From NCBI GenBank assembly GCA_963820555.1, contig CAWGAT010000036.1, positions 4,568 to 68,567 on the forward strand: a DNA stretch of 64,000 nucleotides, in the 5' to 3' direction. This document shows positions 2,980 through 58,003 of this stretch, one piece after another (within the stretch, counting starts at the first letter, position 1; each line of letters begins with the position of its first letter). This DNA comes from Candidatus Bathyarchaeota archaeon (GTDB lineage: Archaea; Thermoproteota; Bathyarchaeia; TCS64). The translations under genes were made by a program, and so were the position numbers. The notes beneath the pieces are model-generated. The model made no database searches, had not been told where the DNA came from, and saw nothing but the letters and a program-made list of their open reading frames with translations.

Positions 2980-3050
2980 AAAAGTAACTAGTGGATTAAA
3001 GGGAGTTGAGCTGTTTAGAGTTTGCCTTCGGCGCCTCTTCCTCGTCGTCA

Positions 3051-3944
3051 TCATCTCTCACCCTCGCCTCCGTAGATGAACTGAAGGTCGTCGAAGGTGA
3101 GCTTCTCACCAGCAGCCATCTTACGCTGTGCCTCCTGGCGGAGGGTCTCGACGCGGGCGTTAACCTTCGCCATCTTATCCCTCTCGACCTTCAGGTCATC
3201 GGCGCGCAGGCCATCTCTGATACCCCGCACCTGAAGGCTGATTCCGTCAAGCTCCTGCTCAACCTTCTTCACCTCCCCGAGGTACTCGACGAACTTTGCG
3301 TGCGCCTGGTTCGCCTTCTCCCTCTCCTCATCAGCCTTCCTGTGTAGGAGGAGCATCGACTCATGGTGCTTCTGGCTCTCCTCGCGGAGTGCGTTCATCT
3401 CATCGCGTACCTGGCGGATGTTCATCTCCGTGGCCTTGGCTTCGGCGGTGGCCTCCATGGTGGCCTCGGTCCTCTTCGGGGGCTTCTTGAACGTGCTCAG
3501 CCTACGCCTCAGAGAGTTGGCGCGCTCGACTAGTTCGAGCTCCCTCTCCCTGTCGAGTAGCTCCCTCGTCGGGGTCGTCATGACCTCCCACTCGACGGTG
3601 TTCAGGTCGCGCTCGACCCTCCTCTTCTTTGGGAGTTCTCTGTAGCCTTGCTGGACCTGCTGCTCGATGCCTGCCAGCTTCTTCCTCTTCTCATCCAGTT
3701 GATCGTAGAGGGGTTGGAGTCTATTCTTCACATCGGCGACTTGGGCGTTGATCTTATCCCGTTCCTCCTTGTGTTTAATCGCCTCCTCCCGTATCTTCCG
3801 GGCGGACTCGTTGATCCTGTCGCGCTCGTCGCGCCAGCGATTGACGTGCTCGAATAGTTCGCTCCGTTTTCTGCGGAGATCGGAATCCATTGTTTCAAGC
3901 TGGTCGAGCTTGAGGTCGTCGCCAGACATCAGCAAATACACCAC
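3051..3944 (-). CDS. Archaeal coiled-coil protein (COG1340-like)
   Basis: 297-aa ORF, highly charged heptad-like sequence rich in E/K/R/L. No enzymatic motifs. Confidence 0.55.
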   Translation of the reverse strand: MVYLLMSGDDLKLDQLETMDSDLRRKRSELFEHVNRWRDERDRINESARKIREEAIKHKEERDKINAQVADVKNRLQPLYDQLDEKRKKLAGIEQQVQQGYRELPKKRRVERDLNTVEWEVMTTPTRELLDRERELELVERANSLRRRLSTFKKPPKRTEATMEATAEAKATEMNIRQVRDEMNALREESQKHHESMLLLHRKADEEREKANQAHAKFVEYLGEVKKVEQELDGISLQVRGIRDGLRADDLKVERDKMAKVNARVETLRQEAQRKMAAGEKLTFDDLQFIYGGEGER

Positions 3945-13826: not shown

Positions 13827-14996
13827 ATGAAGGCCTACCTCGACAACGGCTCAGGAGCACCCGTCGACCCAAGAGTCCTAGAGGAGATGCTCCCCTACTT
13901 CACCGAACACGTAGGGAACCCGAGCAGCTTCCACAGCGAGGGCTTCAAGGCCCTCAAGGCGATAAACAGGGCACGCGAACAGGTCGCCGCCCTCATAAAC
14001 GCCGACCCAACCGAGATAACCTTCACCGCCAGCGCAACTGAGGCCACAAACCTCGCCATAATTGGCACGTGCAAACCGCTACAAGAACAAGGGCAACAGA
14101 ATCGTCTCAAGCGCCGTCGAACATATAAGCACCGTAAACATCTGCAAGGACCTCACCACGAGGCGGCTGGGAGTACCAGCAGGCACCTGTCGACAGGTAC
14201 GGCGTCGTCTCCCTCGAGAAACTCGACGAACTCACCACAGACAAGACCGTCATCGTCACCGTCATGGCCGCAAACGGAGAGATAGGCACCATAGAGCCCA
14301 TCACAGGACGCAGCCGCAATCGCCCACGCCAAGGGCGCCTACTTCCACACAGACGCAACCGCTGCCTTCGGCAAGATCCCCCTAGACGTCAAACAAATAG
14401 ACATAGACCTGATGACCCTCAGCAGTAACGACATATACGGCCCCAAGGGTGTCGGGGCACTCTACGTTAAGAAGACCATCCGCCCCCGCCCCGTTATCAT
14501 CGGCGGAGGCCAGGAGCAGGGGATGCGCAGCGGCACCGAGAACACACCCGGTATAGTCGGCTTCGGAAAGGCCGCCGAACTCGCCAAGCGGGAGCTGCCC
14601 GAGGAGTCGAAGCGCCTCACCGAGCTCCGCGACCGCCTCATCAAGGGCCTCACCACGACAATCCCCGAGGCCTACCTCAACGGCCACCCAACCAACCGCA
14701 CACCAAACAACGCCAACATCCGCTTCAGCTACATCGAGGGCGAGGCACTCACCCTCAGCCTCGACGACGTCGGCGTCCAGTGCAACACAGGCTCCGCCTG
14801 CGCTGCGAAGACCCTCGAACCAAGCGCCTGCCTCCTCGCCACCGGCCTCAAACCCGAAGACGCCCACGGCAGCCTCGTATTCACCCTCGGGAAAGCCAAT
14901 AATAAGGACGAGATCGACTACGTCATACAGCAGCTACCGGGGATAGTCAAGCGCCTACGCGCCATGTCGAGCATAACCCCACAGGAGCTAAAGTAG
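13827..14996 (+). CDS. iscS: IscS/NifS-like class V fold protein lacking the PLP lysine; at least three frame disruptions as assembled
   Basis: Pieces are 13827..14285, 14062..14385, an unlisted third frame ([35 protein letters not shown]) and 14412..14996. The catalytic loop GSAC is present. The usual S-x-H-K is S-S-N-D (14427-14432). Confidence 0.85.
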
Positions 14997-14997
14997 A

Positions 14998-15378
14998 ATG
15001 TACAGCGACAAGGTCATGGAACACTTCAAGAACCCCCGCAACGTCGGGGAGATAAGCGACGCCGACGGCGTCGGTACCGTCGGCAACCCCGTCTGCGGCG
15101 ACATGATGACCATGTACATCAAGGTCAAGGACGGAAAGATCGCGGACATCAAGTTCAAGACCTATGGCTGCGGCGCCGCCATAGCCACAAGTAGCATGAC
15201 GACCGAGCTCGCCATGGGCAAGACCGTCGAGGAGGCCGACAAAATCACCCGCCAGAGCGTCGCCGACGCCCTCGACGGCCTACCACCCGTCAAGATGCAC
15301 TGCAGCAACCTCGCCTCAGACGCCCTACACGAGGCCATAAAGGACTACAAGAAGAAACAGGAGGAGAAGAAGAAATGA
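14998..15378 (+). CDS. iscU: IscU/NifU-type Fe-S cluster scaffold
   Basis: Intact 126 aa. GNPVCGD, YGCGAAIA and HCS provide the three conserved Cys ligands. Confidence 0.9.
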   Translation: MYSDKVMEHFKNPRNVGEISDADGVGTVGNPVCGDMMTMYIKVKDGKIADIKFKTYGCGAAIATSSMTTELAMGKTVEEADKITRQSVADALDGLPPVKMHCSNLASDALHEAIKDYKKKQEEKKK

Positions 15379-23789: not shown

Positions 23790-23916
23790 GGTTGACTCTG
23801 GGAATGTGTGTGATCTAGTGAATTTAGGATTTCCTGCGTATGTGTTTAGGTGCTTGTGGCGTGCTACTACTCATACTTAATTTTTTTTACTCTCGTTGTG
23901 TACGAATGGAGAGAAG

Positions 23917-24159: not shown

Positions 24160-24325
24160 CGGCTTTTCGGGATAAGACAGTGGAGTCTATAATTAAAACA
24201 CTTGGAAGAGCCCACTTCTAAAGGATTTTTACTTTCGTTACCCTAATCACAGCTATTGAATAATCGTGGGCCTCTCATGTCTTTCGCATGTGTAATTGAA
24301 CACATGGGGTATGTAATTGTAGGTG

Positions 24326-24436
24326 TGGCGGGCCCGGAGGGATTTGAACCCACGATCTCCGGCTTAGAAGGCTTGCGCGCCGGCGTCGGGTTGCGGCGAC
24401 CGGCTAGGCGCCTTATCCTGGCTTGGCCACGGGCCC
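24326..24436 (-). tRNA. tRNA gene with about 33 nt of intervening sequence and encoded CCA; probably tRNA-Arg(UCU)
   Basis: Acceptor GGGCCCG/CGGGCCC+G+CCA. D-arm GCCAAGCCAGGATAAGGC. T-arm GTGGG-TTCAAAT-CCCTC (one T.T mismatch). Loop CTTCTAA followed by GCCGG. A/T-rich tcttaaaaag lies 25-34 nt upstream. 111 nt in total against about 78 expected. Confidence 0.6.
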
Positions 24437-24526
24437 CCACCGTCTTGAGGAGCGCCCCCTCTTTTTAAGAATTGATGCAGAATCCTAAGCGTTGGGAGTC
24501 TGAGCCTCTCATCGCTAACGGAGTAT

Positions 24527-26615: not shown

Positions 26616-27268
26616 GCCTGGACCGGTTTCTGCTTGGGCTCCCCAGTATTCAACGTTTCCGGGAGCCTCCTTATCCCCTGAATAATCGGCGGGGCCAGAA
26701 CGGCGAAGATTATCGTGTTTGTCACGGTGTGGATAATTGGTGGCCAGGGGTAGTATAGAGGTACGAATGTCAGGTAGATGGTCTGAACAGGGTCTGTTTG
26801 GTAGGCGAGGGCGAACCCGAGGCTTGATGTGAGGTCGTAGATAAGAGTTAGGGCGAATCCTATGACACCGAGGCTAAGACTGAACCTCCCCCAGCCCGCT
26901 GGTTTTAAGAACCTGGAGGTGAAGGCACCCGCCAACCCAAATAGCGCGCCGAGGCCAGCCATCACTATGAGGAGAACTGGGGAAATCGTGTATAGCCACG
27001 CAGCGGGATGGGCGAAGGGATAGGGGACGAGCATGTATATGCTCAGGCTGATTACACCGACGCTTACGCCCACAGCTGCTCCGAAGCAGAATCCGGCTAT
27101 GAAGATCATCACAGTCATGAGTTCGAAGACCCCGGGCAATGTGGATAGTGCTAACCCCCTGCTATAGGCAACGACGATTGCGAGTGCCGACATCACCGCG
27201 GTTATGGAAGCCTGCTTTGAGTTCATATGTGTCTGGATTATCCATCCAGCCTTAAATAATTTACCCAA
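26612..27268 (-). CDS. Polytopic membrane protein (ECF S-component-like, tentative)
   Basis: 218 aa with about 6 predicted TM segments. Its stop overlaps the metallopeptidase start by 4 nt. Confidence 0.35.
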   Translation of the reverse strand: MGKLFKAGWIIQTHMNSKQASITAVMSALAIVVAYSRGLALSTLPGVFELMTVMIFIAGFCFGAAVGVSVGVISLSIYMLVPYPFAHPAAWLYTISPVLLIVMAGLGALFGLAGAFTSRFLKPAGWGRFSLSLGVIGFALTLIYDLTSSLGFALAYQTDPVQTIYLTFVPLYYPWPPIIHTVTNTIIFAVLAPPIIQGIRRLPETLNTGEPKQKPVQA

Positions 27269-27302: not shown

Positions 27303-27908
27303 ATGAGCTTCAAACCCATCCTAAACCGTGTTGCGGAGAGGTCCGCCCCCGGCAGGTCCCCATCCTACGGCGAAACCCAGGTCCTGAGGGCACTTGAACT
27401 CGTATCGGGCGAAGGAATCGGCAGGGCCGCCCTCGGTTTAAAACTCGGTATAGGCGAGGGCGTCGTAAGAACCCTCATCAAGCACCTCTTGGCGGAAGGT
27501 CTGGTGGAGGTGTCGATGAGGGGAGTTAAGACGTCGAAGAACGGGGGGAGGCTCCTCTCGGATATACACGCGGTGATATTGAGAGGGATTGGAGCCCCGG
27601 CGACTGAGGACGTCGTGGGGGGATGCGGCTACATCGTCCTTGTGAGGGGGGTAGCATCCCATGTGCGTGTCGGCCTTGAGCAGAGGGACGCCGCGCTGCT
27701 CGCAGGTGCTAAGGGGGCAACGACCATAACATTCGTGGGCGGAAGGGCATCGATACCCGGAATAGATCGTGGCCCCTCCCGGTCCTTATTGTCCTTCTTG
27801 GAGGAGAAGGTCAGACCCGAGGACGGTGATGTGGTGATCGTGGGAACGGGTGACACAAGCTCGGATGCGCAGGTCGGAGCCTACGCCGCGGCGCTGAGTC
27901 TGATTTAG
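27303..27908 (+). CDS. Winged-helix DNA-binding protein with an uncharacterised C-terminal domain (DUF4443-like, tentative)
   Basis: 201 aa. ETQVLRALELVSGEGIGRAALGLKLGIGEGVVRTLIKHLLAEGLVEV looks like a wHTH. Confidence 0.4.
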   Translation: MSFKPILNRVAERSAPGRSPSYGETQVLRALELVSGEGIGRAALGLKLGIGEGVVRTLIKHLLAEGLVEVSMRGVKTSKNGGRLLSDIHAVILRGIGAPATEDVVGGCGYIVLVRGVASHVRVGLEQRDAALLAGAKGATTITFVGGRASIPGIDRGPSRSLLSFLEEKVRPEDGDVVIVGTGDTSSDAQVGAYAAALSLI

Positions 27909-27918
27909 AATATCCGGA

Positions 27919-28055
27919 CGCTAAGCATACGCCCTACATCCGCCGCCAAAGCAACTAGAAAAACGCCCCGATTAACAACACCGGCTAAAACAGCCGGAAA
28001 CGTGGCGGCGGCGAAAGTACTCCTCCTCCCCCTGCATGCACACTGAGACACAGGG
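27919..28055. repeat. Intergenic conserved element, copy A (candidate structured RNA or 5' leader)
   Basis: Aligns ungapped with 46733..46870 at about two-thirds identity by manual count. Helix 27940-27947 (ccgccgcc) pairs with 28004-28011 (ggcggcgg). Hairpin 27981-27986/27992-27997. C-rich cctcctccccc tail. Confidence 0.6.
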
Positions 28056-28065
28056 TTAACCTCAA

Positions 28066-28539
28066 ATGGCGAAGAGCGGCACAATACCTATGCTCCACTT
28101 CGCCTACGGATCAAACCTATCTGCCAAGTTCCTCCGCCAACACTGTCCGACCGCCGTATTCCAGATGAAGGCAGAACTACCCAACTTCAGGATAACGTTC
28201 CCGTTCTACAGCCAGAAACGGCAGGGGGGGATAAGCAGCATAATCCCAGCCCCCGGCGAACTCGTACGCGGGGTTCTATACGAGGTCAACCAACACGAAA
28301 TGGAGGAGCTCGATGTCGTCGAGAGCGTCCCCCAAGGCCTCTACGTCAGGGAGACATACCTCGTCCTCGCCGAAGACAAGAGGTGGCACAGCGCCGATCT
28401 CTACCGCTGCACTAAACCAACCGGCCCATACGCCCCTGCTAGGAGCTACGTCGAACTTATGCTCGAAGGCGCAGAGGAGCACCAACTCGACCCCAACTAC
28501 GTCAAGGAGCTGCACTGGCTCATAAGCAGTTTAAACTAA
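28066..28539 (+). CDS. Gamma-glutamylcyclotransferase (AIG2/GGCT-like) family protein
   Basis: 157 aa. LHFAYGSNLSAKFL is the YGSNL motif at the N-terminus. Confidence 0.75.
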   Translation: MAKSGTIPMLHFAYGSNLSAKFLRQHCPTAVFQMKAELPNFRITFPFYSQKRQGGISSIIPAPGELVRGVLYEVNQHEMEELDVVESVPQGLYVRETYLVLAEDKRWHSADLYRCTKPTGPYAPARSYVELMLEGAEEHQLDPNYVKELHWLISSLN

Positions 28540-28547
28540 AATGCTGA

Positions 28548-29337
28548 TTAACTGGTTGGAACGAGCTTTATCTCGTAGAGGTTGGGCCACATCTTGCCCG
28601 TGACGAAGAGGCGGTCACTAGATGCATCATAGGCGATCCCGTTCAGGACACTGTTAACGTCTGGATGCGACGGTCCGGGTAAGCCAGTTAGGTCTGATCC
28701 AGGAATCGACGTGGCCGGTCGAGGGGTCGATGACGGCTATCATGCTCGTCAGGAATATGTTTGCGTAGATCTTTCCATTGATGTATTCGAGCTCGTTCAG
28801 GTCCGTGACGGGTGAGCCGTCAGTCACCGTCACATGCCCGACGTTTCTGAGTGTCTGGGGATCCAGGAAGTAGAGGGTCGAGGACCCGTCGCTCATAATT
28901 AGCCTGCTACCGTCGTATGTGAGGCCCCAGCCCTCCGTTGGGTAGGTGAAGTTCCCAAGGAGGGCGAAGCTTGACAGATCGTAGATGAAGCCGATCCCGT
29001 TCCGCCAAGTGAGTTGATAAATTCTGTTGCCCACGATGGTTATACCCTCCCCGAAGTACTCAGCTGGGAGAGAGATGCTCTGGAGCACAGTCCCTGTTTC
29101 AAGCTGGACCCGCCTCAGCGTTGATTGTCCGTTGATCCCGGTTCCCTCGTAGAGGAATCCACCGCGATACACCAAACCCTCCGTGAAGGCGTCAGTCGAA
29201 TGAGGGTAGATGTTGACTATCTGGTAGTCGTAGACGGGGGCTCTCGACACGGTTAGCCTCGGTAGAAGAGCATAAGTCACTACGAGTACCAAAGCCACCG
29301 AGAAAATGAGCACCGGGACGAGGTACTGCCTCTTCAT
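28548..29337 (-). CDS. Glutaminyl-peptide cyclotransferase (beta-propeller type), signal-anchored; one frame disruption near 28690
   Basis: ORF 28654..29337 ([14 protein letters not shown]...[16 protein letters not shown]...). The shifted frame restores the conserved C-terminus [29 protein letters not shown], ending at TAA 28548-28550. Confidence 0.8.
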
Positions 29338-35221: not shown

Positions 35222-35992
35222 CTAGAGGGTGACCTTAAGCCAGTCGAGAACAGCCTTGATGAGGGGTATCCGGTGCTCCGAGAAGCCGTGGTCCGCCCCC
35301 TCGATCAGAACCCACTTCTTCGGCTCGTGCGCCCTATCATAGAGAATCTTACAGAGGTCGGGCGGAGTCACGTCGTCCTCCGTTCCAACGACGATCATTG
35401 AAGGCCCCTTTATGGCCGAGATTAGATTAACCGGGTTACCGGTCTCCGTGACCTCCTTGAGATCAGCCCGGAGCTGCTCCACGCTCATCCCATCGAGCTT
35501 ACCCTTAGCTGACTGCATGAAGTGGGGTATCACCGTCTCGAGGGCGTCACCACTCGTCCAGAGGCTAATGTCGCTCACAGGAGACATCAAGACACAAGTC
35601 TTCAGGGTCGCGTCGAGACTCATCCTCTTTGAGAGGGGGAGGGCTCCCATGCTATGGCTGACGAGGCCGACGCGCTCCGGATCGACGCACACAAGGGATC
35701 GCAGATAGACTACGGCGTCTCGCGTGCTCGGCTCCAGCTTGGCGAACCTGTAGGCCCCCTTGCTCCCCCAGGCGCCCTGGTAGTAGAAGACGAGCGTCAC
35801 GATGCCGTTGAGGGCGAGCTCCTCGGCTAGGTCCATGTTCTTGGTGTCCCCAGGGTAGCCGTGGCAGATTGCCACCGCGGGGTACCTACCCTCCGGTGCC
35901 GGCCTGTAGAGTCTACCTAGAAGTGGTATGCCATCACTCTGGAAGGAGACGTTCTCGACAACGATGCTCATTGGAAGGCATACCCCCGTCAA
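35222..35992 (-). CDS. Alpha/beta hydrolase (dienelactone hydrolase/S9-like), tandem copy 1
   Basis: 256 aa. Nucleophile elbow VSHSMGA. C-terminal GADHGF. Confidence 0.75.
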   Translation of the reverse strand: MTGVCLPMSIVVENVSFQSDGIPLLGRLYRPAPEGRYPAVAICHGYPGDTKNMDLAEELALNGIVTLVFYYQGAWGSKGAYRFAKLEPSTRDAVVYLRSLVCVDPERVGLVSHSMGALPLSKRMSLDATLKTCVLMSPVSDISLWTSGDALETVIPHFMQSAKGKLDGMSVEQLRADLKEVTETGNPVNLISAIKGPSMIVVGTEDDVTPPDLCKILYDRAHEPKKWVLIEGADHGFSEHRIPLIKAVLDWLKVTL

Positions 35993-36037
35993 CTAACTTA
36001 AATCAACCGATTGAAACTTTCAGTCCACTGTGTGGGG

Positions 36038-36817
36038 TCAGATTTGCTTCAAGAGCCAGTCGAGAATCGCCTTGATGAGGGGTATCCGATGCTCCGAGAA
36101 GCCGTGGTCCGCCCCCTCGATCAGAACCCACTTCTTCGGCTCATTCGCTGCCTCGTAGAACCTCCGGCATATTTCAGGTGGAGTGACCTCGTCCTTCGAC
36201 CCCACAACGACCATTACGGGCACTTTGATCTGCGGGGCGAGATAGACGGGGTTCGTCGTCTTCGAAACCTCCCCAAGGTCCTTCAACAGGCTCTCGTATG
36301 TCGCGCCCTTCAGCTTCCCCTCCGCCATAGTAGCGAGCCGCTTCGCGCTACCCTCAAGCCTCTCTTTGGCCGCGAGGGCTCCGACGTCGGCCGCCGGCGA
36401 CATCAAGACTCCAGTCTTTATGGTCGGGTCGAGACTCATTGTCTTCGAGAGCGGCAGTGCTCCCATGCTGTGGCTGACGAGGCCGACCCTCTTCGGGTCG
36501 ACGTATGGGAGTGAGCGGAGATACGCGACGGCGTCCTTGGCCCCGACCTCAAGCTTGGTCAAGCTGTACTTCCCGCCGCTCCCCCAGGCGCCCTGGTAGT
36601 AGAAGACGAGCGTGACAATGCCGTTGAGGGCCAGCTCCTCGGCGAGGTCCATATTCTTGGTATCCCCCGGGTAGCCGTGGCAGATGGCCACCGCCGGCTT
36701 CCTAGCCCTACCCTCTGGTCTGTAAATCCTTCCGAGGAGGGTGTTGCCCCCGCTCTGGAACTCGACGTTCTCCAGCTTCACCATCGTTATCACTTTCACC
36801 TCCACCCACCTCCCCAT
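36038..36817 (-). CDS. Alpha/beta hydrolase, tandem copy 2
   Basis: 259 aa. Shares AVAICHGYPGDTKNMDLAEELALNGIVTLVFYYQGAWGS and KKWVLIEGADHGFSEHRIPLIKA with copy 1. Confidence 0.75.
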   Translation of the reverse strand: MGRWVEVKVITMVKLENVEFQSGGNTLLGRIYRPEGRARKPAVAICHGYPGDTKNMDLAEELALNGIVTLVFYYQGAWGSGGKYSLTKLEVGAKDAVAYLRSLPYVDPKRVGLVSHSMGALPLSKTMSLDPTIKTGVLMSPAADVGALAAKERLEGSAKRLATMAEGKLKGATYESLLKDLGEVSKTTNPVYLAPQIKVPVMVVVGSKDEVTPPEICRRFYEAANEPKKWVLIEGADHGFSEHRIPLIKAILDWLLKQI

Positions 36818-46141: not shown

Positions 46142-46684
46142 ATGAGCGGGAACGCGGCGCTGGTGATAATCGACGTTCAGAGCGCCTTCTTCGACAAGGA
46201 CGGCCACGTCTACGCCTACCGCGGGGACGAGTTCCTGTCAACGATCAAGGGGCTGATCTCGCGGGCGAGGAAAGCCGGCGTACCGGTCATATACGTCCAG
46301 CACGACGGGGATAAGGGGACCCCATTCGAGCCCGGGAAACCGGGCTGGCCAATACACCCCGCAATCGCTCCCCTGAAGGGGGAGCTGGTCATTCACAAGC
46401 GGACCCCCGACTCCTTCTACGGCACGACGCTTCAGGCTGAACTCGAATCACGGGGAATAAGGAAGCTCATAATCACGGGCTTCCAGAGCGACTGGTGCGT
46501 CGACACGACGGTGCGCCGCGCCTACAGCCTCGAATACGACGTTACGGTTGTGGAGGACGCCCACAGCACGTATGACACGAAGATACTGAAGGCGCCCCAG
46601 ATAATCGCCCACCACAACTCGATCTTTGGCGGCAGATTCGCCAAGCTCGTGAAGGCCGCGGACATAGACTTCGATAAACTTTAA
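46142..46684 (+). CDS. Isochorismatase-family cysteine hydrolase
   Basis: Intact 180 aa. ALVIIDVQSAFF, and ITGFQSDWCVDTT containing the catalytic Cys. Confidence 0.85.
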   Translation: MSGNAALVIIDVQSAFFDKDGHVYAYRGDEFLSTIKGLISRARKAGVPVIYVQHDGDKGTPFEPGKPGWPIHPAIAPLKGELVIHKRTPDSFYGTTLQAELESRGIRKLIITGFQSDWCVDTTVRRAYSLEYDVTVVEDAHSTYDTKILKAPQIIAHHNSIFGGRFAKLVKAADIDFDKL

Positions 46685-46732
46685 GCTGAGGTTGTTGCAG
46701 AGTAGCAAGACATCTCCAAGAAATTTACTCAG

Positions 46733-46870
46733 CGAAAAGCATCCGCTGCACCTCCACCGCCAAAGGAACGATAAAAACCCGCCAAACAGGAAAAATGGTT
46801 AAAATAAGCGGAAACATGGCGGTGGCGAGGGTACCCCCCTCCCCCCCTGCGCGCACGCACAGATACAAAG
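46733..46870. repeat. Intergenic conserved element, copy B (candidate structured RNA or 5' leader)
   Basis: Partner of 27919..28055. Helix 46754-46761 (ccaccgcc) pairs with 46818-46825 (ggcggtgg), which is a compensatory G-C to A-T change relative to copy A. C-rich tail. Confidence 0.6.
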
Positions 46871-46972
46871 AATCTACCGAATAACCAGCGACAATCCATC
46901 CAATACGTAAAACCGAACCACCTTAGCCAATTCTTAATAGCAAGCTAGGCTCACGGAATCTTGGCGAACCCA

Positions 46973-47783
46973 ATGGTCGGCACGGTAGCAGTCATCGGCG
47001 CAGGAGTAATCGGCGGAGCCATCGTCAAGTGCCTACAAGAGTCCGAGGAGGTCGGTAAGGTCATCGCGACCCGCCGCAGCCTCGAGGCCCTCAAGGCGCT
47101 GAAGGAGCTAGGCGCCGAGGTCACCACGGACAACAAGGCCGCGGCCAAGAAGGCGGACATCATCTTCCTCTGCGTCAAACCCAACGATGTCGCCACCGTC
47201 CTCCAGGGCATAGAGGAGGAGGTCGAGGGAAAGTTAGTCATAAGCACAGCCGCCATCATCCCATTAAAGTACTACAGCGATGCCGTCCCCGTCGCGAGGT
47301 ACGTCCGTAGCATGCCCAACATAGCCGCACTCGTCGGCGAGAGCTTCACCGCGTACGTCTGTGACCCAAAGGTCACAACAGAGGACAAGATCCACCGTGA
47401 AGACCCTGCTAGACACCATGGGCACATGCACCGAGGTGGAGGAGAAGTACATGGACGCCATCACTGGCCTCACGGGTAGTGGTCCTGCTTTCGTCGCTAT
47501 AGTCATCGACGCCTTAATGTTCGCCGGCTTAAAGGTTGGGCTCCCTCGGGAACTGAGCCTACGTGGTGCCGCCCAGTCCGTTCTCGGAGCCGCAAAACTT
47601 GTTCTCGACGGCACAATGAAGCCGACCGAGATAGCGGAGATGGTAACCACCCCTGGAGGCACGACCATCGACGGCATCTACGAGATAGAGGACGGAAAGC
47701 TCCGCACCGCCCTCATGAACGCGGTCGAGGCAGCGACAAAGAAGAGTGCAAACATGCGCTTCAAGTGGGAGAAGAGCGAGTGA
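46973..47783 (+). CDS. proC: Pyrroline-5-carboxylate reductase; one frame disruption near 47393
   Basis: VAVIGAGVIGGAI Rossmann motif. ORF 46961..47479 joins 47361..47783 (GSGPAF..., TPGGTTIDGI...). Confidence 0.85.
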
Positions 47784-56760: not shown

Positions 56761-58003
56761 GAGAATTTTGATTTACTCTGGTTTTAGTGGTTTTTACCCC
56801 CCCTCGGCATTCAGACGCGTTTTTTCCACCCCCCACGGGTAAGCTTAAAGATCTCTAACACGAACACCCATCATGCACTCCTTCAAGACCTACCTCCTGA
56901 AGCAATCCTACGAGAACGTGGCCAAACTAGGAGACAAACTCGCCGAAGCGGACAAGATAGACTGGGAGGCCTTCAGACCCATCACCCAGGGACTCTTCGA
57001 CAACGGCGGAACCAACGGCGGCCGCCCCAACCTGGACCCGGTGATGATGGTGAAACTGCTGGTGCTTCAGGCCTGGTACGGGCTGAGCGACCCCGAGCTC
57101 GAGAGGCAGGTCGCGGACAGGATCAGCTTCCAGCGGTTCCTAGGGTACCCGGAGTCGGCACCGGACTTCTCGACGGTGTGGAGGTTCAGGGAGAGGCTCG
57201 CCGTCTCCGGTAAGGACAGGCTGATCTGGGACGAGCTGCAGCGCCAGCTGGACGCCGAGGGCCTGAAGGTGGAGAAGGGCGTGATCCAGGACGCCTCGTT
57301 CATCACAGCCGACCCCGGCCACGCCGGGGCCGACGAGCCCCGTGGCGACGCGGCCCAGACCCGGAGGTCCAGGGACGGGGCCTGGGCGGTGAAGGGGAGG
57401 AAGGCCTACTTCGGCTACAAGCTCCACGCGAAGGTGGATACGAACCACGGCCTCGTCCGCGACCTCGAGGTGACGCCCGCCAACGTGCATGACAACGAGG
57501 TCGACCTGAGTAAGCCGGGTGAGGTGGTTTACCGTGACAAGGGGTACCAGGGCGTGGGGCCTCGTGGCTGGGACGCGACGATGAGGCGTGGGGCCCGTGG
57601 CCACCCGCTGAGCATCTGGGATAAGCTGCGGAACGCGCGGATCGGCCGAAGGCGGGCGCCGGGTGAGAGGCCGTTCGCGGTGATCAAGCGCGTGTTCGGC
57701 TCGGGGCACGTGCTCGTGACCACTGTTTCCAGGGTCCGGGTTAAGATGGTCTTCGCGTGTCTTGGCTTCGACGTGGTTCAGCTGGGGAGGCTGGGCGTGT
57801 AGCCGGCGGCGTGGGCCATCGATCTGGTGGCCTTTTAGGTGGTTTGAGGGTGGTGTATGGGGGGCTGGGGAGGTGTGTAGGGCTTTGGGGAGTGGTCGGT
57901 GAGGTGGCTTGAGGCTTGTTCCAGCGTTGTTTCATGCCGATCACAGCCCCTTTCTTGAACAAAAATAACCAGTATCAAAGAAAACGAAGATTATCAAAAT
58001 CCT
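56761..58003 (+). mobile_element. Complete IS5-family insertion sequence (1243 bp) with imperfect terminal inverted repeats and a 4-bp target duplication
   Basis: IRL GAGAATTTTGAT (56761-) versus the reverse complement of IRR GAGGATTTTGAT (-58003), 11 of 12 identical. Flanking direct repeat TATG at 56757-56760 and 58004-58007. Confidence 0.8.
56873..57802 (+). CDS. IS5-family DDE transposase
   Basis: Intact 309 aa. InsH-like N-terminus (LDPVMMVKLLVLQAWYGLSDPELERQV...ISFQRFLG). DDE region (DASFITAD, YRDKGY). Confidence 0.9.
   Translation: MHSFKTYLLKQSYENVAKLGDKLAEADKIDWEAFRPITQGLFDNGGTNGGRPNLDPVMMVKLLVLQAWYGLSDPELERQVADRISFQRFLGYPESAPDFSTVWRFRERLAVSGKDRLIWDELQRQLDAEGLKVEKGVIQDASFITADPGHAGADEPRGDAAQTRRSRDGAWAVKGRKAYFGYKLHAKVDTNHGLVRDLEVTPANVHDNEVDLSKPGEVVYRDKGYQGVGPRGWDATMRRGARGHPLSIWDKLRNARIGRRRAPGERPFAVIKRVFGSGHVLVTTVSRVRVKMVFACLGFDVVQLGRLGV

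Follow-up and report, generated by a model that had tools for sequence, protein, structure and literature searches.

A low-copy family of intergenic elements in one Bathyarchaeia clade, possibly acting in cis on the mRNA of flanking genes

In the intergenic spacers of one Bathyarchaeia clade we identified a group of related sequences that is best read as a low-copy family of non-coding elements of about 110-140 nt. In total, seven full copies and one fragment were found at three loci (A, B, and C) in at least five genomes or contigs. We file the element, as the best fit, under lineage-specific small dispersed intergenic repeats and candidate cis-RNA elements. The explanation that we prefer, and hold tentatively, is that this lineage-specific element is co-transcribed with the flanking genes and acts in cis on that mRNA. 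The main alternative, a strong contender that we hold somewhat less probable, is a decaying dispersed repeat of about 130 nt without function, spread by some form of transposition or ectopic recombination around the radiation of the clade, with the GC-rich inverted repeat as a relic.

Results

Two copies of the element in the window

The window, that is, the whole 64-kb stretch of DNA analyzed here, contains two copies, A and B, which are identical in 97 of 138 alignment columns (70%; MAFFT), with a single 1-nt gap located inside a C-run. The original prediction had described a gapless similarity at about two-thirds identity; the similarity stands, while the absence of gaps does not. With copy A as query against the remaining window, blastn retrieved copy B at E=2e-6 (110 nt, 73.6% identity), and the best match other than B reached only E=0.06. 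Searches with nhmmer and a covariance model (filters off) returned A and B as the sole two copies in the 64 kb. Both are non-coding, as had been claimed, each lying between an upstream stop and a downstream start codon (stop at 27906-27908 and ATG at 28066 for copy A; stop at 46682-46684 and the proC start near 46961-46973 for copy B). The C-rich, CCUCC-like tails of the prediction are found at 28020-28033 and 46834-46847, with CCUCC in both. The features of the two copies are as follows.

27919-28055, plus strand: copy A, the full region of paralogous similarity (covariance model, 121 bits), flanked by genes for a DUF4443/CggR_N-type regulator (27303-27908) and a GGACT-family protein (28066-28539)
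27940-27948, plus strand: copy A, 5' arm of helix P1, CCGCCGCCA, nine of nine pairs with 28003-28011
27949-27980, plus strand: copy A, 5' side of the loop, A/C-rich and T-poor, with the invariant GAAAAAC and GCCCCGAU blocks (from conserved columns and base composition)
27981-27997, plus strand: copy A, inner hairpin CCGGCU-AAAAC-AGCCGG, six of six pairs (three to five of six in the other copies)
28003-28011, plus strand: copy A, 3' arm of P1, UGGCGGCGG, with a conserved GGAAAC directly 5' of it
28020-28043, plus strand: copy A, pyrimidine tract (CCUCC-type) with the conserved UGCAUGCAC block after it; copies vary in C-run length
28030-28055, plus strand: predicted hairpin specific to locus A, CCCUG (28030-28034) with CAGGG (28051-28055), just 5' of the GGACT start
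46733-46870, plus strand: copy B (covariance model, 110 bits), between an isochorismatase-family gene (46142-46684) and proC
46754-46762, plus strand: copy B, 5' arm of P1, CCACCGCCA, nine of nine pairs with 46817-46825
46795-46811, plus strand: copy B, counterpart of the inner hairpin, AUGGUU-AAAAU-AAGCGG, only four of six pairs
46817-46825, plus strand: copy B, 3' arm of P1, UGGCGGUGG, nine of nine pairs with the 5' arm
46834-46860, plus strand: copy B, C-rich tract and UGCGCGCACGCAC block (from the alignment of copies)
46926-46940, plus strand: promoter-like box of proC, GCCAATTCTTAATAG, outside the element and 3' of copy B; the sole part of the spacer conserved in contig L085

Some genes of the window appear to be broken. 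By frameshift or premature stop, proC (46961-47783) is split into 46961-47479 and 47361-47783; Glu_cyclase_2 (28548-29337) and a NifS-like gene (13827-15378) are also affected, and a glutaminyl-cyclase-like gene encodes 227 aa in the window and 262 aa in the short-read contig L001. These are likely to be homopolymer errors of a long-read assembly, or pseudogenes. Because there are several apparent frameshifts in the window, homopolymer lengths within the element may be unreliable.

Other features of the window were recorded. On the minus strand, 24325-24440 has the look of an archaeal tRNA gene carrying an insertion or intron (GGGGCCCGTGGCCAAGCC...GGTTCAAATCCCTCCGGGCCCGCCA), with a good TATA box, TTCTTAAAAAG, upstream of it; ARAGORN reported no tRNA gene in the window, and the Rfam tRNA model gave 17 bits only, on 24333-24390. 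A tandem duplication with a period of 816 nt occupies 35238-36707 in three collinear blocks of 76-86% identity and probably represents two tandem paralogous genes. The most strand-skewed stretch of the window, 57730-57900 on the minus strand (A+C about 0.78), gives a Pro/Thr/His-rich low-complexity reading (CCACCTCACCGACCACTCCCCAAAGCCC...) and is unrelated to the element according to nhmmer and the covariance model.

Distribution of the family

The repeated element of the original prediction proved to be a genuine family with homologues at further sites: the search for more copies brought to light five additional full copies, together with a fragment, on contigs of related Bathyarchaeia.

Locus A: copy A of the window; A2, L147 10618-10756; A3, L148 4445-4572; fragment, L149 755-815
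Locus B: copy B of the window; B2, L083 825-964, the orthologue in a near-identical strain
Locus C: copy C, L080 644-787; C2, L147 2858-2997, minus strand
Empty locus C: window 23790-23916, minus strand, a spacer of 127 nt without any match, between a DUF2196 gene (24159-23917) and an E1-alpha gene (23789-22842)

At locus C, the spacer is flanked by genes for a DUF2196 protein and for a 2-oxoacid dehydrogenase E1-alpha. Scanning species-representative genomes with the loose pattern CGCCAAAG-N35-60-CGGAAACNTGGCG gave 81 matches, of which nhmmer confirmed a single one, in L080 (a Candidatus Bathyarchaeota MAG), and a strict pattern for the 3' half had a single match in the metagenome scan, the copy B orthologue in L083. 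A2, C2, A3, and the L149 fragment were found by reading contigs that carry orthologues of the flanking proteins. As the exact patterns cover only four (genome) or three (metagenome) of the seven known copies, the number of copies should be read as a minimum. A covariance model of all seven full copies detected no extra copy in the window or in about 230 kb of Bathyarchaeia loci. The viral-contig scan produced 53 chance matches, none of which was confirmed, and BLAST against phages and plasmids gave no match; nothing points to an origin from a virus or plasmid.

The clade range is narrow (flanking proteins about 84-100% identical), and the loci lie within 23 kb of one another, at 23.8, 27.9, and 46.7 kb in the window. 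Empty orthologous sites were observed for locus C in the window, for locus B in L085, and for loci A and C in L150. In L085, where locus B is syntenic and free of the element, only the proC promoter box is conserved in the spacer. This presence/absence polymorphism at orthologous sites speaks for a decaying repeat, as do the narrow range, the lack of copies in the 230 kb of other loci and the single true match in each pattern scan. At all three loci the neighbouring genes are co-oriented and the element has their sense orientation; in every copy the sense strand contains 7-22% T and more C than G. Such a consistent orientation (three of three loci) and the extreme T-poverty retained on one strand in all copies argue against a functionless repeat, as does the lack of phage, plasmid, and viral matches. 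T-runs of five or more occur on the sense strand of A3 only, as judged by inspection of the aligned copies, and the pyrimidine-tract motif, CCUCC or CCACC, is present in six of the seven copies and missing in B2.

About 70 nt upstream of copy C, at L080 577-597, the 16-nt GAAAAACGCCCCGATT was observed, which also occurs on the minus strand of L147 near 3040-3060. It matches the loop of the window's copy A exactly, a small hairpin with the loop AAAAAC comes next, and the stretch is possibly a truncated, tandem second copy; a partial second copy adjoining copy C in L080 would favor a decaying repeat. In L151-L158, from more distant Bathyarchaeia, a gene-free spacer of about 490 nt separates a DUF4443 gene from a TFIIB gene (e.g., L151 10601-11093); this spacer does not match the element, and a short way beyond it there is an integrase gene.

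Boundaries of the element

MITEs (transposable elements of the miniature inverted-repeat type), archaeal ones included (PMC10969869), are similar in size (100-150 nt), intergenic location, possession of an inverted repeat and presence/absence among relatives. The element differs from them by an internal inverted repeat, the lack of target-site duplication, fuzzy boundaries, strand asymmetry, consistent orientation with genes and an apparently very low copy number, and assignment to the MITEs was rejected: homology extends about 20 nt 5' and 40 nt 3' beyond the arms of the repeat. By inspection, the ends of the element (CGnnnAGCAUCC... and ...UGCACGCAC) are not complementary and no target-site duplication is found at A, B, C or their orthologues; comparison of filled and empty locus C gave no clean junction. 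The possibility raised earlier, that the element is the end of a mobile element, thus found no support in terminal repeats or target duplications, and the absence of terminal inverted repeats, target-site duplications and an associated transposase in the aligned ends and flanking gene lists also counts against a decaying transposed repeat. Copies A and B are not direct repeats bounding an 18.8-kb island, as the interval is syntenic housekeeping DNA (PheRS etc.) in L085 and L147.

Helix P1, the inner hairpin, and covariation

The original prediction had named an 8-bp helix with a compensatory double change between the two copies, and this observation is correct. The helix, P1, actually has 9 bp (CCGCCGCCA/UGGCGGCGG in A, CCACCGCCA/UGGCGGUGG in B), and its pair 3 is G-C in A, A-U in B, and G.U in B2, the last being a classic intermediate between the other two. 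The inner hairpin (27981-86/27992-97) does keep four of its six pairs in copy B, as had been stated. In the family as a whole, P1 is perfect in A, A3, B, and B2 (four of seven copies), and A2, C, and C2 have each lost three of the nine pairs without compensation. C2 might form a shifted alternative closing helix of 8 bp (GCCUCCAC/GUGGGGGC); A2 has no closing helix. Broken helices in three of the seven copies are what a decaying repeat would be expected to display.

The 81-nt cores were compared with dinucleotide shuffles, giving folding z-scores of -3.56 for A, -3.37 for A3, -2.47 for B, -1.59 for B2, -1.39 for C, -0.58 for C2, and +0.06 for A2, and the full 137 nt folds no better than shuffles (z about -1). 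Across the seven copies, 82.9% of the cells are paired against 81.0% after shuffling (reached in 71 of 500 shuffles), the covariation score is 0.200 against 0.166 (59 of 500), and four pairs have double changes against 2.0 expected (36 of 500). The covariation term of RNAalifold is unfavourable (+1.02), and realignment to the model left the outcome for covariation unchanged. The inner hairpin shows double changes in three pairs, yet nine of its 42 cells are unpaired. Counts of G.U versus C.A did not permit a choice of strand, since standard pairs, summed per copy, amount to 54+33 on the plus and 56+31 on the minus strand.

The claim that the compensatory change demonstrates a structured RNA is thus not borne out: covariation over seven copies, a small number for such a comparison, is close to that of shuffles, and P1 is broken in A2, C, and C2. 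Independent variation of paired positions, which had been put forward as an observation that would speak against the structure, was seen in part. The lone compensatory change is real but receives no backing from the wider family; a structured RNA is possible, though unproven.

Sequence constraint

Overall conservation of the element is unremarkable, as orthologous copies (57-67% identical) are no closer than paralogous ones (62-72%) and on par with other orthologous spacers (54-67%). These star-like pairwise identities are in keeping with a decaying repeat. At locus A, branch rates were estimated for three taxa from 107 element sites and 158 shared 4-fold sites of the two flanking genes. In this comparison, which uses uncorrected distances at a single locus and is thin in data, the element evolved at 0.59x the 4-fold-site rate on the window branch (95% bootstrap 0.30-0.98), at 0.46x on the L148 branch (0.27-0.74), and at 1.27x on the L147 branch (0.79-2.05). 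The value for L147 is consistent with neutrality and as such favors a decaying repeat, against which stand the rates below those of 4-fold sites on the two other branches and the variation of rate among sites. P1 is intact on the slow branches, and the helices of the two copies residing in L147 are degraded. Conservation of a site in one locus lineage tends to go along with its conservation in the others; two of six comparisons gave Fisher p=0.019 and 0.007. Taken together with the strand asymmetry, the slow branches and the shared conserved sites indicate weak purifying selection on the element in some lineages.

Promoter signals

A TATA matrix was derived from 112 upstream regions of the clade (consensus yTTWAAWt; median of true promoters 6.3 bits). 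The weak A/T-rich boxes reported upstream of the helices do exist (27903-27914 and 46720-46728); a promoter role for them was not upheld, as their scores are 3.3 and 1.6 bits and the orthologues do not retain them. With this matrix, no conserved promoter was found on either strand of the element, and the positions of the boxes differ in A2 and A3. At locus A, no TATA box precedes the GGACT gene itself, whereas L150, which is free of the element, shows CTTTAAACG around position -35; this would agree with a transcript running through the element into GGACT. The downstream genes of loci B and C, proC and E1-alpha, each retain a conserved promoter 3' of the element.

These data bear on an alternative that we consider unlikely, namely a regulatory module at the DNA level. 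In this reading, candidate protein-binding sites for a common regulator of GGACT, proC, and E1 would be provided by the conserved blocks and by the CCGCCGC(C) boxes, of which two are direct and one is inverted, at a distance of about 55 bp; in a possible variant, the hairpin loop would also hold a weak TATA-like box. The invariable position upstream of a co-oriented gene, the proximity of the three loci (within 23 kb), the DUF4443/CggR_N regulator gene adjoining copy A and the lack of a TATA box for GGACT at locus A would agree with such a module. So would the loop of A3 (GTTTAAACA), which scores 8.3 bits. However, the corresponding sites in A, B, B2, and C have at most 3.8 bits or fall outside the top sites, and the TAAAAC-type loop as TATA box of the element, with a start 3' of the GGCGGCGG arm, was rejected because a high score is seen in A3 only. 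The strong strand asymmetry speaks against palindromic operators, many element-free genomes also carry the regulator gene, the downstream genes have no demonstrated common pathway, and the likely operator of the regulator is a different palindrome (27232-27250). This near-perfect palindrome, TCTGGAT-TATCC-ATCCAGC, lies directly upstream of the TATA box TTAAATAA in the divergent spacer that separates the DUF4443 regulator gene from an ECF-transporter S-component gene. It is retained in L147, L148, and L150 and is probably the operator of the DUF4443 regulator.

Mobile or duplicated promoter-upstream segments are found before unrelated genes, and resemble the element as homologous upstream segments co-oriented with non-homologous downstream genes. 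In contrast to such segments, the element has no promoter conserved under the clade TATA model, and its downstream genes have retained a promoter of their own in two cases out of three.

Comparison with known classes

Rfam 15 gave no match at the gathering threshold in the whole window and none at E<=10 on both copies apart from an 11-bit chance match to anti-hemB, in agreement with the earlier statement that the element belongs to no known RNA family. Literature searches returned nothing specific to the element, and to our knowledge no regulatory RNA has been described for Bathyarchaeia. A C/D box sRNA was rejected because UGAUGA is absent from both strands and CUGA is present only in the tail of copy A, and an H/ACA sRNA because the 3' arm is followed by CGA(A/G)(A/G)GUAC, the two sides of the internal loop measure 32 nt and 5 nt, and tandem G.A motifs are lacking. 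A riboswitch or cis-regulatory leader was also rejected, given the own promoters of proC and E1-alpha, the lack of a shown common pathway for GGACT, proC, and E1-alpha and the non-significant conservation of the fold. No CRISPR array is present in the window, and the Pfam lists of related loci contain no cas domains. In an informal comparison with the sequence, ORB boxes, integron attC sites, template/variable repeats of DGRs, K-turns, and BHB motifs did not fit. Phased A-tracts were dismissed on the basis of a hand count, which gave a mean spacing of about 13 nt and hence no helical phasing.

Discussion

We infer for the element transcription, strand, and function in cis. Its sense orientation, the T-poor, terminator-free strand, and the lack of a promoter of its own fit read-through transcription. 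Read-through from the flanking genes would place the element in their sense transcript, where the 9-bp GC clamp P1 would enclose a 55-nt, A/C-rich, largely unpaired loop with a small hairpin, followed 3' of P1 by the pyrimidine tract (CCUCC/CCACC type) and the conserved UGCACGCAC block. A candidate role is that of a stability or processing barrier between cistrons. At locus A, the C-tract may alternatively pair with a G-run that precedes the GGACT start codon; for the upstream cistrons of loci B and C, a barrier would be the more natural guess. A hairpin between tail and G-run can be drawn in all three orthologues of locus A (CCCUG/CAGGG in A and A2, ACCCCU/GGGGGU in A3), the G-run 5' of GGACT is also present in element-free L150, and loci B and C have no such G-run. 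This pairing, to a G-run that L150 has without the element, suggests that the C-tract may locally occlude the ribosome-binding region of GGACT. Counted against a cis-acting element are the non-significant covariation, the losses in P1, the pair counts that do not tell the strands apart, the unremarkable overall conservation, the empty sites and the separate promoters at loci B and C.

The nearest bacterial counterparts are the REP/BIME sequences. These intercistronic palindromes (e.g., the malE-malF REP) are thought to affect mRNA stability and the differential expression of cistrons; REPs are tight hairpins of 20-40 nt that number in the tens to hundreds and are associated with RAYT transposases. 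The element shares with them a GC-rich inverted repeat between co-directional genes, would likewise be carried on mRNA and is dispensable at individual sites. It differs in that its arms are 55 nt apart, that the homologous region goes beyond the arms, by about 20 nt on the 5' side and about 40 nt on the 3' side, that it is apparently very low-copy and resides in an archaeal host, and that no RAYT was seen.

A more specific version of a cis-acting element would be a regulatory RNA class particular to Bathyarchaeia, controlling translation or stability of the transcripts of amino-acid/2-oxoacid metabolism genes (GGACT, proC, and E1 dehydrogenase) by means of a GC-clamped, A/C-rich platform and an anti-SD-like tail, possibly together with a protein or small-molecule partner. 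We regard this as unlikely too. If it were true, loss of the partner in the L147 lineage would explain why both copies there have degenerated.

Also to be weighed, and quite improbable in our estimation, is an independent trans-acting sRNA whose C-rich, anti-SD-like tail or A/C-rich loop would pair with G-rich ribosome-binding sites. Archaeal sRNAs that mask ribosome-binding sites, such as those of Methanosarcina mazei, have their own promoters and terminators and validated targets. The element is similar to them in being short and non-coding, with a C-rich, anti-SD-like single-stranded stretch beside a stable stem. CCUCC or CCACC in six of seven tails, a GC clamp that would give a stable body, and SD-like GGUGA/GGAGG upstream of 17 of 112 genes in the Bathyarchaeia upstream set, compared with four in a control window, would suit such a molecule. 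In contrast to the known sRNAs, the element has neither a conserved promoter nor a conserved terminator (there is no T-run terminator past the tail) and no known target; the motif is missing in B2, SD sequences are used by a minority of the genes of the clade, and the tail is the least length-stable part of the element.

A small protein or leader peptide, read either on the plus strand from A/GUG in the 3' arm (MAVARVPPSPP... in B) or as a hydrophobic minus-strand peptide (MFPLIL...), is highly improbable: although ATG/GTG is aligned in six of seven copies and the frames stay open across A, B, and C since the core is nearly free of indels, both the proline-rich leader peptide before proC and the hydrophobic antisense peptide were rejected on start (AGG in A2), frame and stop (two classes of plus frames, ending after 14-25 codons as read by eye; minus-frame stops in A2 and A3, though A3 is under constraint), indels (1 nt between B and its close orthologue B2), and periodicity (no coding-type 3-periodicity, p=0.12).

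Bathyarchaeia are abundant, uncultured archaea of sediments. If the element is only a decaying repeat, the finding is ordinary, and it illustrates that one compensatory change between two copies can mislead. The repeat itself is unsurprising; what is unusual is only the link between an intact helix and constraint, in a group that is not known to have any described regulatory RNA. The pattern among lineages leads to the prediction that copies with an intact helix are constrained and those with a broken helix evolve neutrally. If functional, the element would provide a first handle on post-transcriptional control in Bathyarchaeia, as a conserved non-coding element located inside operons.
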